Below, in pieces: positions 1-6,000 of a DNA stretch of 64,000 nt (its first letter is position 1; each line of letters opens with the position of its first letter). Where the stretch lies: the NCBI RefSeq assembly GCF_055900595.2, contig NZ_CM148325.1; one strand, 5' to 3'. Made by a program: the position numbers.

Positions 1-3000
1 GGGTTACGGGCCAATGCTAATGGCGTGGATTTAAATAGAAACTTTCCGGCAGCAAACTGGAAGGAAGGTGAAACGGTTTATCGCTGGAACAGCGCCGCTG
101 AAGAACGTGATGTCGTTTTACTGACAGGTGACAAACCTGGCTCCGAACCTGAAACTCAGGCGCTGTGCCAGCTTATACATCGCATTCAACCTGCCTGGGT
201 GGTCTCATTCCACGATCCACTGGCCTGTATTGAAGACCCCAGACACAGCGAATTAGGCGAATGGCTGGCCCAGGCGTTTGAATTGCCTCTGGTAACCAGC
301 GTCGGTTATGAAACACCTGGCTCTTTCGGCAGTTGGTGTGCGGATCTCAACCTGCATTGCATCACCGCAGAGTTTCCGCCCATCTCCTCCGACGAAGCCA
401 GCGAAAAATATCTCTTTGCGATGGCAAACTTGCTGCGCTGGCATCCTAAAGATGCAATTCGCCCGTTGTGAACTGAAGCGCCGGTTCCACATCTACCGCC
501 AGCCAGGTCGGTCCGTCAAGATCGGCGAAACTGACCTGCGGCACCAGCGGTAAAGCGGCGCTAATGGCACGAGAGGTACACAACATGCAGCCCAGCATCA
601 GACTAAAACCTTGTGCACGTGCTTCAGTCGCCAGCGCCAGCGCTTCCGTCAGGCCACCCGTTTTATCGAGCTTAATGTTAACCATCTCATAGCGCCCTTT
701 CAGCGCCTTCAGATTGCTACGAGTATGACAACTTTCATCAGCACAAATCGGTAACGGATGAATAAAATTCTCCAGCGCCGCATCGTCCTGCGCAGGAAGC
801 GGTTGTTCAAGCATCGCAACGCCTAAATCCGCCAACAGCTGGCAACGCGCCGCCAACCCTTCTGCACGCCAGGATTCATTTGCATCAACGATCAACGTCG
901 CATCGGGCACAGCCGTGCGAATTGCCACCATCCGCTCACTAATAAGATGGTTATCCAGCTTCACTTTCAGTAATTTCGCGCCTGCCTGCCAGAGTGTTGA
1001 TGCACTATTGGCCATCTGATCAGGCGTACCGATGACTACCGTCTGGGCAGTGGTGACTGTCTCGGGAAGCGTTATGCCGATCAAATCAGCCAGCGATTGC
1101 TGCTGTTTTCGCGCCGCCAGATCCCACAATGCACAATCCAGCGCATTACGTGCTGCGCCGGCAGGGAGAATTTTTTGCAACTCCTCCCGTGTCAGCCCTT
1201 TCTCTAATTGCGGCACGACGCTCATAATTTGCGCCATTACCGAGGCATCACTTTCTCCATAACGCGGATACGGCGTGCATTCACCGGTGCCTTTAATACC
1301 TTCTTCTTCCAGTTCAACCACCACCACGCGCGCTTCACTACGACTTCCCCGAGCAATCACAAACGGGGTATGTAAGGGCCAGGCTTCCTCAAATACCTTA
1401 ACGGTTCTCATCTTTACTCCTTGTTGTCGCGGTGGTCTGCGGATTAAGCGCAAATAGCGTTTGCTGTGTTATTGACAGTTAGCATAAACTAGGTGTGACG
1501 TTAACTATATGTAAACAGGAAAGATAATCATGTCACAAACCGTTCATTTCCAGGGCAACCCGGTTACAGTCGCCAATTCCATCCCGCTGGCGGGTAGCAA
1601 AGCGCAGACTTTTACTCTCGTGGCAAAAGATCTGTCTGACGTCACCCTCGGTCAGTTTGCGGGTAAACGCAAAGTGCTGAACATTTTCCCGAGTATTGAT
1701 ACCGGTGTTTGCGCCGCATCAGTACGTAAGTTTAACCAACTGGCAACCGAGATCGACAACACCGTTGTGCTGTGTATCTCTGCCGATCTGCCGTTCGCCC
1801 AGTCTCGTTTCTGCGGCGCAGAAGGTCTGAACAACGTTATCACCCTCTCCACTTTCCGTAACGCTGAATTCCTGCAAGCCTACGGTGTGGCAATTGCTGA
1901 TGGCCCACTGAAAGGTCTGGCAGCGCGTGCCGTTGTGGTTATTGATGAAAATGACAATGTGATTTTCAGCCAGCTGGTGGATGAAATCACCACCGAGCCG
2001 GATTACGAAGCAGCTCTGGCTGTACTGCGCTAAACAACTGTGCCGTTCACTGAATCACCACCGGTGAACGGCAGTTTTTTGATCTACCAGTCCCACTATT
2101 TTCCAGAGTTCCTGCCACTATTCCCCCTAACCGTTGTGCATTAAGATTGCTCTTTGCCATTATTGGCCCAGCGGAGTGATGACTATTATGGATGATAAAC
2201 AAATTACGGTCTGGCTTAAACACAATTGCTGTTCAACGGACATTCCTGCCATTGCCGAGGCACTAACGAACCATGCAGAATGGCTTTTAGAGCTAGCGCC
2301 AGATCCTATTGAACAAGGTAGTTCATGTTTACCGCCGACAGCTGCAGCCGGTATTTTTCTTGGCGCAGCGGCGATGGTTCACTGCGGCGAGGCTAGTGGT
2401 GCAGAAACCTGGCTCGAAGCAGCCATTACTGATTACCATTTCCTTAATCCAAATGGATATAGTTCATGGAGAGGCAGTACGCCTGTTTTTACAGCAATAT
2501 CGCGTTACCCGGCATTAAGAATGGTGTTATTTAACGCCGCTTGCGCAATGGAAGACTGGAATAAAGCATCCGCTGTTCTTGAATCGCTTTTCCATGCCAG
2601 CGATGTCCCGGAAGATAACCCTGTCGCCCCAAATTTTACCCCTTATGCGCTGAAAGCGTTTATCGCGGATTACCACCCGTTAGGGCCTGCTTATTATGAT
2701 GAAACCTGGTTGCTGGCAAAACAAGCGTGGTTAATTAATGCGGGCGTTCTGGATGAGCGAACCTGCAATACCTGGAAGCAATATACCCGCCACTTGCGCC
2801 ATTTGATCCACAATGCACAGTTTGCCGATGCGCTCTCTTTTGTACGCAGTAAAATAGAACCGTTAAATCATATCCATACCTACTCAGACTTTTATCTGTA
2901 TGCGATTGGTTTATTTTCTTATACTAGTCAGCTAAATGAAGCGCTGACCTGGATAAAACAGTTAATCCACAACAATGATGGTCATTTCTGTGATCTTTTC

Positions 3001-6000
3001 GTTTCAACTGGCAAAGAGCGCCGAATAAAGCCTGAACTTAGTACCTTGCTGAATAATCTCTTGCACAGCGCAGAGTTTCAGGCGTTGCAGGATAAATATC
3101 TCACCGTCGGACATGATGTTGTGCATTCTGGTCCCTTCATGTCAGTTTATGAAAAGGTTCTTGGCGGAAAGTCCCGAAAGCGCTGCGCGATTAGTCGAAA
3201 ATTAATCTCGCCCGGCGAAGCGGTTTATGAATATCGTCATTTGGATAGTGTGGAATATATTGCAGCGAAAGCGGCCTTTCAGACATCTGAGCTAAATAAT
3301 ATCGCCCACCGGCATCATAATGATAGTTATCAGTGGCATGAATTTGCCGCCCAATGGCCTCGTCGGGGTTCACTTTCTCACCCAGATATTGCCCGTTATT
3401 TGTTTGAGCGCCAGGAAGGAAAATGCTTTGATGCCGCAGAGTTTATACAACTGATTGCGGAACCGTTTGTCTTTCCGATGCGTTTCATATGGGTTGCCGG
3501 GTTGTCCTTTGAATTACATCAGTATCCGGATGCCTATTTCGTAAATGACAATATGGCGGGTGAATTTGTTAATCTCTGCTGGATGGCTATGAAATGCGGA
3601 CATGCTGGCGACATTTTCAAACAACTGGCCCACGAGCCGCATGACGTTGCTGACCCTATTTACGCCATGCTCGCCACGTTTGACCGCGCTGATTGCCGTA
3701 GCGCGGCCGCCGCGCACTTTGGACAACCGGAACTACCGGAAATAATGGCACTGGCTTTCAGTTCGAGGTTATCGCTCGACAGCGTCCTTACCATCGCTGA
3801 GTTTGGTAAAAATCAGCCGCGATTTTCACATGCGCTAGCAACGGCCCTCCTGCGTTACAACCTGCACATCTACTCAAACTATATGCCGCAGGTTAATTGG
3901 TACCTTCAGGGGCTGGAACACTATGCTTTGGCAAAAGGCGGTCAACTTTTAAATTTCTTTGTGCATATTCCAGAACAAATTCCCGTTCTGGCGACCATGC
4001 TGGAACATGGCGTATTAGTGCGTGGGATCGGTGAAGGTGCCTATGATGGTTATGATAATTCAGCAAATTCATTTCATCATGCCGTCGTGATGCACTGCCT
4101 CGCGCACGCGCCGGAAAAAGTCCGCTACTGGATGGAAACACCCTGGATTCAGAACTATTTAGTGAATGCGCCGCTGCGTCAAACGGCGCGCCATGTGGAA
4201 GCCTGGCATAAAAAGTTTGGCATCAAATGAACGTTGCCGCTGCGCCTTAACGGCGCAGCCAGCACAATCACTCTTCGCTTTTCTTCTGGTTTAAGCCATA
4301 TTCCCGCAACTTATTGGCAATCGCGGTATGCGAAACACCGAGACGTTTTGCCAGTTTGCGTGTGCTGGGATAATTGCGATAAAGCTGGGTTAATACCGAG
4401 CGTTCAAAACGGCTGGTGATTTCGTCCAGCGAACCTTCCATCGCATCTTCGCCCACGGCTACCGTTGCGGCGTCATAATCCGGTAACAAAATATCCTGTG
4501 GACGCAGCTCATAGCCGTCCAGTTGTGTCAGTGCGCGATAGATAGCGTTCTTTAACTGCCGCACATTTCCCGGCCACGCATAACGCGTAAGTACAGTATT
4601 CAGGTCAGCGGCCAGTTTCGGACGCGGCACGCCCTGCTCGTCGGCAAAGCGGGCGACGAACAGCTCGGTTAACGGCATGATGTCCTGCGGACAATCACGT
4701 AGCGGCGGCAGATTGAGCGTCAACACGTTCAGACGATAATAGAGATCTTCACGGAACACGCCTTTTTGCACCAGTTCGACCAAATTCTTCTGCGTAGCGC
4801 AAATAACCCTTACATCGACATGCACTTCATGATCTTCACCAACTCGACGGAAAGTACCATCATTAAGGAAACGCAGTAATTTCGCCTGCATCCGTGGTGA
4901 CATCTCACCTATTTCATCCAGCAGCACCGAACCACCGTTCGCCTGCTCAAAGAATCCTTTCTTCCCTTCCGGAGCATGACCAAAGAGCTCACTCTCGACC
5001 GCATCTTCCGGTATAGACGCACAGTTCAGCGCCAGGTAAGGTTTGCTCGCTCTGGGGCTTGCCTGATGGCAGGCGTAGGCAAAGAGATCTTTACCTGTAC
5101 CGGTGTCACCCGTAATCAGCAACGGCGCGCTTAGCATCGCCAGTTTCTGCGCCTGTTCGACAACATGCTTCATTTTCGGGCTGACGGCGACAATTTGACT
5201 GAAGGCACTGACGTCCTGTGCAGCGACATTCTGCAACTGACGGCCCATACGAATCGTCGAGCGCAACATCACCACCGCACCGGTCAGAACGTGTTGATCA
5301 TTTTCATCCTGAAGATAAACAGGCGTAATCTCCATCAGGAAATTCTGCCCATTAATAACGACATGCTCGTTATGCGAGTCTTGCGGTTCGCTTTCCAGCC
5401 AGCGTAAAAAATTAAAGCCGTTAATTAATTGCGCGGCGGTATGGTTGCGCAGGCGATCCAATTTTTGCCCAAAAAGCTGACAGCTCGCCGGGTTCGCCAT
5501 ATCCACTTTGCTTTTCATATCAACAGAAAGCACAGGTTCAGGCAACGCCTCCAGTAACGCGCTCAACGCCAGATGCTCACGTTCGGAAGGCATCCACGGG
5601 ACAGTACGCACATCGGTAACACCTGCAATACGGCGTATTTCGGCCATCAGACTGCTGAAGCTCTCAAACTCCAGTTCAGCAAAATTGAGGTAGATTCGCC
5701 CAATGGGGTCAATCTCAATACCGCGTAAATCAATGCCTCTTAGCACGAGTAGATCGAGTAATTCGCGGGTCAGACCGAGTCGGTCTTCACAAAAGACTTC
5801 CAGACGCATGGGAACCTTCACCTGAAAAAAGAACAATTAATATGATGATATGACACTATTTGGATAGCAGGAAGGTTTCTGTCAACAATAATTGACACAA
5901 AGACGGAAAAACGGGCACTTCGGCGTAAAGATATCCGGTCAGCACCCGATATTGCATTATTTTTCGGCAGGAGTTTTGCCTTTTTGCAGCGTCTCTTTCA

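Follow-up and report, generated by a model that had tools for sequence, protein, structure and literature searches.

The convergent genes tpx and tyrR lie close together in E. coli K-12, with a spacer of 43 bp between their stops. In the 64,000-nucleotide stretch of contig NZ_CM148325.1 (RefSeq assembly GCF_055900595.2) analyzed here, which we call the window, the two stops are 2,234 bp apart, and the DNA between them carries a single plus-strand gene; the original prediction had put these distances at about 44 bp and 2.2 kb, very nearly the values found. What does this gene do, and how did it come to lie between two core genes? We tentatively favor, at somewhat less than an even chance, the reading that its product is an orphan immunity protein of the cytoplasm, which would bind an interbacterial toxin entering the cell, a role suggested by the genomic context of its relatives.

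In a blastn comparison with K-12, homology ends at position 2027 and resumes at 4270; the insert thus spans 2028..4269 (plus strand, 2.24 kb). It takes the place of about 54 bp of K-12, comprising the last two codons of tpx, the stop of tyrR and, between them, the 43-bp spacer, in which the two genes share a terminator. As had been predicted, a single unbroken open reading frame (ORF) of 698 codons runs through the insert, from a TTG at 2134 (2134..4230, plus strand). However, the likelier product is a protein of 680 aa that starts at ATG 2188 (coding sequence with stop, 2188..4230, plus strand), since homologues from other genera begin to align at this Met and a GGAG at 2173-2176, a likely ribosome-binding site, lies 11 nt 5' of it. 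This is also the RefSeq/PGAP call: the identical sequence in strain E200086 is WP_103253635.1, a 680-aa "hypothetical protein" starting at ATG 2188.

The protein finds no match in Pfam (even at an E value of 10), NCBIfam, PADLOC, PHROGs or the PDB sequences. When 67 family members are compared with Pfam, only ankyrin repeats are returned, in two of them, and ten diverse members compared with PADLOC and NCBIfam also match through ankyrin repeats alone (in PADLOC, two members). A profile search of PDB returns TPR/PPR matches only, all confined to the N-terminal part of the conserved core, which as a whole covers residues ~188-660. Relatives are few. A word-indexed search of 5.8 billion proteins yields nine clusters (from E. 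coli, Salmonella, enterobacterial assemblies and Aliirhizobium), and an exhaustive search of 1.84 billion representatives yields 90 sequences at E<1e-3, mostly from Alphaproteobacteria. Scans of genomes and of metagenomes, both made with one conserved peptide pattern, give four and eight relatives, respectively, and a second word-index protein search adds nothing except P0013 and P0099, which together are a split paralogue. Members include proteins of free-living Alphaproteobacteria and Planctomycetes; across phyla the distribution is sparse and patchy, with a gene GC content below that of the host, and a single plasmid record carries the family. In a few members the N-terminus is swapped for ankyrin repeats, and ankyrin or TPR-like repeats are the only fusions in the family. 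Searches of the literature return no mention of the protein accessions. Judged by these comparisons, the family is very small and undescribed, and the protein is not assignable to a described family, as the original prediction had also concluded. On a 69%-GC metagenome contig, a family ORF of 993 aa has a 450-aa N-terminal extension with no Pfam match (L037 5651-8629 = L042), which may reflect either a genuine additional domain or a start called too far upstream.

The surroundings of the relatives provide the main clue to function. Among ~17 distinct loci, there are four phylogenetically independent ones at which family members stand in same-strand arrays of small genes, among them established immunity families. 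The first is a Salmonella island beside a peptidase U32 gene, which contains a TsiV gene (PF11876, "Type VI immunity for VRR-NUC") together with insertion sequence (IS) fragments and many genes for signal-peptide proteins or lipoproteins. The second, an enterobacterial island that follows an hrpA-like helicase gene, has a Tli4_C gene 65 nt downstream, an ankyrin-bearing lipoprotein gene, and a tandem set of three lipoprotein paralogues. Its gene content is not the same in two samples (L018, L031), and it has one gene family in common with the Salmonella island. On the third, a contig of 32% GC, the family gene is followed after 7 nt by a SUKH_6/SMI1_KNR4 gene. The fourth, a Sinorhizobium conjugative plasmid, carries two SMI1/KNR4 genes (one also SUKH_6), a TsiV/DUF3396 gene, and two DUF1963 genes; the last were not counted as immunity evidence, since an immunity role for DUF1963 is undocumented in the literature checked. 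A Rhizobiales segment (L015) is related to the Sinorhizobium plasmid locus and was not counted separately. A fifth locus holds two tandem paralogues (46-63% identity), of which the upstream one is decaying: a frameshift in the conserved GGKxRKRC region splits it into ORFs of 358 and 344 aa (L020 3305-5415 = L021 1148-3258). A 508-aa neighbor in L028 was considered as a further paralogue and rejected (hhalign probability 0.1%). The three tandem paralogues of the hrpA-adjacent island, lipoproteins or signal-peptide proteins of ~285 aa that are 28-35% identical and belong to no Pfam family (L018 15321-17971; L031 10535-12287), have the look of a homogeneous array in their own right, formed by an immunity-type family that is periplasmic and undescribed.

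Heterogeneous polyimmunity loci have been described as genes of the same orientation, separated by short gaps, without toxins and with strain-variable content (PMC3482391). The arrays around the relatives show these features; the E. coli locus is solitary. The immunity modules on record include ankyrin and HEAT repeats (PMC3482391), and DUF3396/TsiV proteins have been shown experimentally to confer immunity against VRR-Nuc nuclease effectors from type VI secretion systems (T6SS), which cleave DNA (PMC9635880) and thus act in the cytoplasm. Because the relatives recur in same-strand arrays of known immunity genes, we infer an immunity role for the E. coli protein, with binding as its mechanism and the cytoplasm as the place where its target would act. 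Rival bacteria would inject a toxin through a type VI or another polymorphic-toxin system, the protein would bind the injected toxin and neutralize it in the cytoplasm, and the cell would keep the immunity gene without a toxin gene as pre-emptive protection. The repeat architecture, the ankyrin-swapped relatives, the tandem paralogy and the array contexts all fit this role. A bolder proposal, which we regard as possible but doubtful, is that large immunity proteins of the cytoplasm make up an undescribed family, of which this protein is the founding member in E. coli, that its C-terminal domain is a new toxin-neutralizing module, possibly enzymatic and hence broad-spectrum, and that the gene is a stand-alone "vaccination" gene spread by homologous recombination in its core flanks instead of by a mobile element.

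The predicted structure is compatible with binding. An AlphaFold2 model built from a 67-sequence alignment has a predicted local distance difference test score (pLDDT) of 90 and a predicted template modeling score (pTM) of 0.91, and it divides the protein into three parts. Residues 1-305 (2188..3102, plus strand) form a TPR-like alpha-solenoid, identified as such by structural similarity to solved TPR proteins; residues 1-187 of this region are an extension missing from short forms of ~490 aa, and residues 188-305 belong to the family core. Residues 315-360 (3130..3267, plus strand) form a small beta unit, with model strands at 317-324, 345-351 and 356-360. This unit bears a basic motif, LGGKxRKRCxxSxxxIxPGxP, in which C333 and G343 are conserved family-wide. 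Residues 361-680 (3268..4227, plus strand) form a helical C-terminal domain that is the signature of the family. Its motifs are ADPIYAMLATFD, RYNLHxYSNYxPQVxW and YDGYxN; pLDDT is 93-99 over residues 460-620, and conservation within the family is highest in residues 401-640. Searches of PDB folds return no solved structural relative beyond generic TPR/solenoid matches, and no PDB or Pfam match covers the C-terminal domain. The protein contains no strongly hydrophobic, signal-peptide-like N-terminus, and a motif scan finds no P-loop or HExxH, as predicted, and no CxxC or GxSxG; we propose that it is soluble and cytoplasmic. It is also, as had been noted, rich in Trp (2.5%), His (5.6%) and Tyr (4.6%), fractions above those typical of E. 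coli proteins.

Could the C-terminal domain instead be catalytic? Under this explanation the protein would be an enzyme or ligand binder of new fold, with the C-terminal motifs as its active site, serving either as an enzymatic immunity factor that reverses the action of a toxin or as a metabolic or signaling accessory, such as an adaptor linked to cyclic di-GMP (c-di-GMP). Strong conservation of the C-terminal motifs across phyla (Y557, H560, Y562, C333, W571), selection that is strongest in this domain, and the solitary position of most alphaproteobacterial loci among ordinary genes would all suit such a protein. On the other hand, the family-wide conserved positions are mostly G, P, W, F, L or Y and mainly structural (G343, P399, G471, F498, L516, G540, W571, P595, W648), with few polar residues among them (C333, Y557, H560, Y562). 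No similarity to an enzyme family or solved structure is found, NTPases, metalloproteases and glycoside hydrolases giving no motif, Pfam/NCBIfam or fold match. The family also has no conserved operon partner. A gene for a c-di-GMP enzyme is directly adjacent, on the same strand, in two alphaproteobacterial loci, encoding GGDEF in one and PAS-GGDEF-EAL in the other (L009 6942-7895; L016 2516-7114 = L040 8640-13235). However, such genes are abundant in Alphaproteobacteria, which makes two adjacencies weak evidence that may reflect chance. These neighbors had also suggested that the basic beta motif might be PilZ-like, an idea that was dropped because the RxxxR and D/NxSxxG motifs are absent. Overall, the model resembles a binding scaffold more than it does a familiar enzyme, but the conserved C-terminal domain could still accommodate an active site; we rate an enzymatic or ligand-binding role as unlikely but worth keeping in view. 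The polysaccharide-active enzyme that was originally guessed finds no support in a helical repeat protein with no recognizable catalytic motif.

Several observations weigh against the toxin-immunity role. Most of the loci, including the E. coli locus and nearly all of the alphaproteobacterial ones, are solitary among housekeeping genes (a solitary copy lies between malM and ubiC in another enterobacterium), and the neighbors in metagenomes are ordinary genes, which weakens the generality of the link to immunity arrays. No toxin gene (PAAR, Rhs, VgrG, CdiA or LXG) adjoins a family member in the ~17 loci. With 680 aa, the protein is far larger than typical immunity proteins, and it matches none of the immunity families described in Pfam (Imm1-74, SUKH, TsiV, Tli4). 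The protein has no signal peptide, yet several of its relatives' neighbors in enterobacterial arrays are periplasmic. Finally, conservation of the C-terminal motifs extends from E. coli to Alphaproteobacteria, where overall identity is ~25%; this is more than would be expected of a fast-evolving binder, and it could indicate an enzymatic or ligand-binding site.

How the gene behaves within E. coli also bears on its function. It is present in 32 of 5,426 complete genomes (about 0.6%), always on the chromosome, and every carrier locus examined is the tpx-tyrR junction. A probe spanning the K-12 junction matches without a break in 5,382 genomes and in two pieces in exactly 32, and in 5,414 genomes the site is either empty or filled by this gene alone, with no alternative cargo. 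Because so few genomes carry it, K-12 is not the deletion state, and the gene is a rare accessory gene rather than one shared by most E. coli, an outcome that would have reduced its novelty. The junction is not, however, the accessory insertion point that the original prediction had supposed, since it holds this gene or nothing. A gut-type metagenome assembly (ERZ1026901, 149-kb contig, L035 2692-4731) contains a copy whose protein is 100% identical.

The carriers fall into three allele classes with DNA identities of about 100%, 98% and 94%. In six representatives of the three classes the 680-codon frame is intact and free of indels. Between classes the ratio of nonsynonymous to synonymous divergence (dN/dS) is 0.27-0.34 at a dS of 0.13-0.15 (Nei-Gojobori), and the dS of the gene is similar to that of tyrR in the same strains. 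Amino-acid substitutions between alleles are fewest at residues 401-640. Given the dN/dS values and the frame kept in three allele classes, the gene is real and under purifying selection. It is also dispensable and repeatedly lost while functional elsewhere, since independent disruptions occur: an additional nucleotide (+1, A) at codon 88 in strain 2014C-3011 (L043 nt ~720), a nonsense mutation at codon 407 (L044), and, in several Shiga toxin-producing E. coli (STEC) strains, an IS600 at ~codon 362 with a 4-nt overlap at ORF positions 1083-1086 (L003 5232-6494). By annotation, at least ~9 of the 32 copies are disrupted. This fraction, about a quarter or more, together with a dN/dS (0.3) several-fold above the 0.02-0.08 of the core neighbors tpx and tyrR, might indicate that in E. 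coli the gene is a remnant in decay that no longer has a function. Yet, at a dS of ~0.15, the ratio is well below 1, the 680-codon frame has acquired no indels in allele classes that differ by 6% of their DNA, and constraint is concentrated in the conserved domain of the family, so that a remnant seems highly improbable. The gene has a GC content of 47.4% (45.7% at third codon positions, GC3), compared with 52-56% (GC3 53-58%) for its neighbors, and a windowed scan places the minimum, 39.7%, at 2851-3150, which bears out the low GC content first suggested by short samples. Rarity, patchiness, low GC content, and moderate constraint combined with frequent decay all fit a toxin-immunity gene.

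The same pattern of a rare, patchy, lone accessory gene with lower GC content and frequent loss would also be expected of a single-gene anti-phage defense or abortive infection system, in which the repeat region senses a phage component and the C-terminal domain is the effector. A sensor made of repeats and linked to an uncharacterized domain is a common design in defense, and one family member has an HsdR gene (type I restriction) ~5 kb away. However, neither a match to a PADLOC-DB v2 defense model nor a location in a defense island is found: PADLOC returns nothing for the query, and the ten diverse members match it through ankyrin repeats only. No PHROG or phage homologue was found. The protein contains no nuclease, NTPase, TIR, Sir2 or protease motif, and the array neighbors of its relatives belong to families of interbacterial-toxin immunity, not to restriction, Abi or CBASS-type genes. 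Defense against phage is thus rather improbable. Of the earlier guesses, which had included a single-gene defense or effector protein, the defense direction comes closest, but the contexts suggest immunity to bacterial toxins rather than an anti-phage or effector function.

The effector part of that guess, in which the protein is secreted to act on host or rival cells, or serves as adaptor or chaperone for such a protein (cargo of a type III, type IV or type VI secretion system), gains something from the carriers, several of which are STEC strains or came from diarrhoeal disease. Effectors often contain ankyrin and TPR repeats, and the ankyrin-bearing members match the repeat portions of Legionella Ank effector models. 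But these matches involve the repeats only and are far below the curated cut-offs, other carriers come from goat, guinea fowl, dog, genet and seawater, and members occur in free-living Alphaproteobacteria and Planctomycetes. The members have no PAAR, VgrG, Rhs or MIX domain and no adjacent secretion gene, and the E. coli gene lies outside any prophage or effector locus. We consider an effector role very unlikely.

How, then, did the gene reach the junction? The insert alters the 3' ends of both core neighbors (window 2019-2033 and 4268-4300). Tpx (1530-2033, plus strand) has 167 aa and ends in AVLR in all carriers examined, compared with 168 aa and AVLKA in K-12. TyrR (4268-5809, minus strand, convergent to tpx and the insert gene) ends in NQKKSEE here, in KKGEE in the 94% allele class, and in SQKKNEE in K-12. 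The junctions, inside these 3' ends, are identical in every carrier examined, which indicates a single insertion event. The event appears to be old, since the synonymous divergence of the alleles is as deep as that of the adjacent tyrR. Thus, an old illegitimate insertion at tpx-tyrR may have been followed by vertical descent, with homologous recombination in the flanks either putting the empty allele back or spreading the filled one. The locus fits vertical descent or flank recombination rather than a mobile element: as the original prediction had observed, there are no flanking direct or inverted repeats, no integrase and no transposase at the insert (tRNA genes were not scanned for), and the site has no variable cargo. 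The flanks show no gradient of divergence that would signal import from another lineage; divergence from K-12 is even across the region, at 2-5%, and so gives no pointer to a donor. Immediately to the left of the window, the mppA-mpaA region is a second presence/absence polymorphism. In a carrier with an identical insert, mppA directly adjoins mpaA and the K-12 block ymjC-ymjD-ycjY-pgrR is absent (L001 1914-4438), and carriers of the 94% allele have ycjY and an SDR oxidoreductase gene at this position instead (L013 6871-9891).

The insert also brings its own boundary signals. Hairpin terminators had been predicted on both sides of the gene, and both hairpins are real, but only the first has the form of a terminator. 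Within the insert, at 2041..2080 (plus strand), a 12-bp stem (2041-2052/2062-2073) is followed by a run of six U (2075-2080); the hairpin at 2041-2073 has a folding energy of -19.9 kcal/mol (z -3.55, with 0/200 shuffles as good) and, from its sequence, is a canonical intrinsic terminator for tpx. The second, a GC-rich hairpin at 4233..4263 that is flanked by the stop codons of the convergent new gene and tyrR, folds with -19.7 kcal/mol on the plus strand and -22.2 on the minus strand (z -4.0 and -3.1) and has no U-tract beside it on either strand. A scan for consensus terminators missed both because of loop length or a missing T-run. Since the region 2081..2187 (plus strand), which includes the GGAG at 2173-2176, lies downstream of the tpx terminator, it probably contains the promoter of the gene. 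A scan of this region finds no σ70 consensus; by eye, there is a weak TTGTGC-18-CATTAT at 2134-2163.

If the immunity role is correct, the protein would represent a structurally new and unusually large family among interbacterial-toxin immunity proteins, and it would make it possible to look for the matching toxin starting from E. coli. Strains with and without the gene are cleanly distinguished by a single locus, and natural knock-outs exist. If the role is wrong, the gene is one of many uncharacterized accessory genes, with a confident model and a domain of undescribed fold. In either case, a single accessory gene has been kept for a long time at one junction of core genes (dS ~0.15 between alleles) with no mobile-element machinery, which is relevant to how pangenome genes persist and how they move by flank recombination.

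Comparison with known systems separates what is generic in this protein from what is new. Its resemblance to TPR/PPR alpha-solenoids (LapB, FANCG, designer PPR proteins) is generic to the repeat fold, at 5-16% identity, and it leaves out both the beta unit and the 320 C-terminal residues, the parts by which the family is defined. A second possible link is to DUF4034 (PF13226), itself uncharacterized and without any mention in the literature searched. Two relatives in the AlphaFold database with a full-length structural match bear this label (one from Rhizobium sp. ZPR4), and a DUF4034 protein of similar length (703 aa) is encoded ~4 kb from the family member in the Salmonella island, on the opposite strand, in an operon with genes for a 400-aa protein and a DUF1266 protein of 238 aa (L004 13838-17878, minus strand). 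However, the query and all 67 aligned members fail PF13226, even at an E value of 0.1, and kinship of the Salmonella neighbor with the query was rejected (BLASTP E 0.25). The closest parallels are with the repeat-type immunity proteins of polymorphic-toxin systems and T6SS (Imm-Ank, Imm-HEAT; Zhang et al. 2012, PMC3482391) and with such members of polyimmunity loci as SUKH/SMI1-KNR4 and TsiV/DUF3396. The query differs from these immunity families in having no sequence or profile match to them, in being two to five times larger, and in its new and unusually conserved C-terminal domain; unlike the members of polyimmunity loci, the E. coli copy stands alone between two core genes. What it has in common with the immunity families is an all-helical, protein-interaction architecture and strain-variable presence. 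As in polyimmunity loci, family genes occur without toxin genes in arrays on one strand, with SUKH, TsiV, Tli4_C and ankyrin genes as neighbors, and diverged paralogues stand in tandem at one family locus. Like TsiV, for which this location is expected from its nuclease target, the protein is predicted to be cytoplasmic. The family is thus most probably new within a known functional kind, the interbacterial-toxin immunity proteins.

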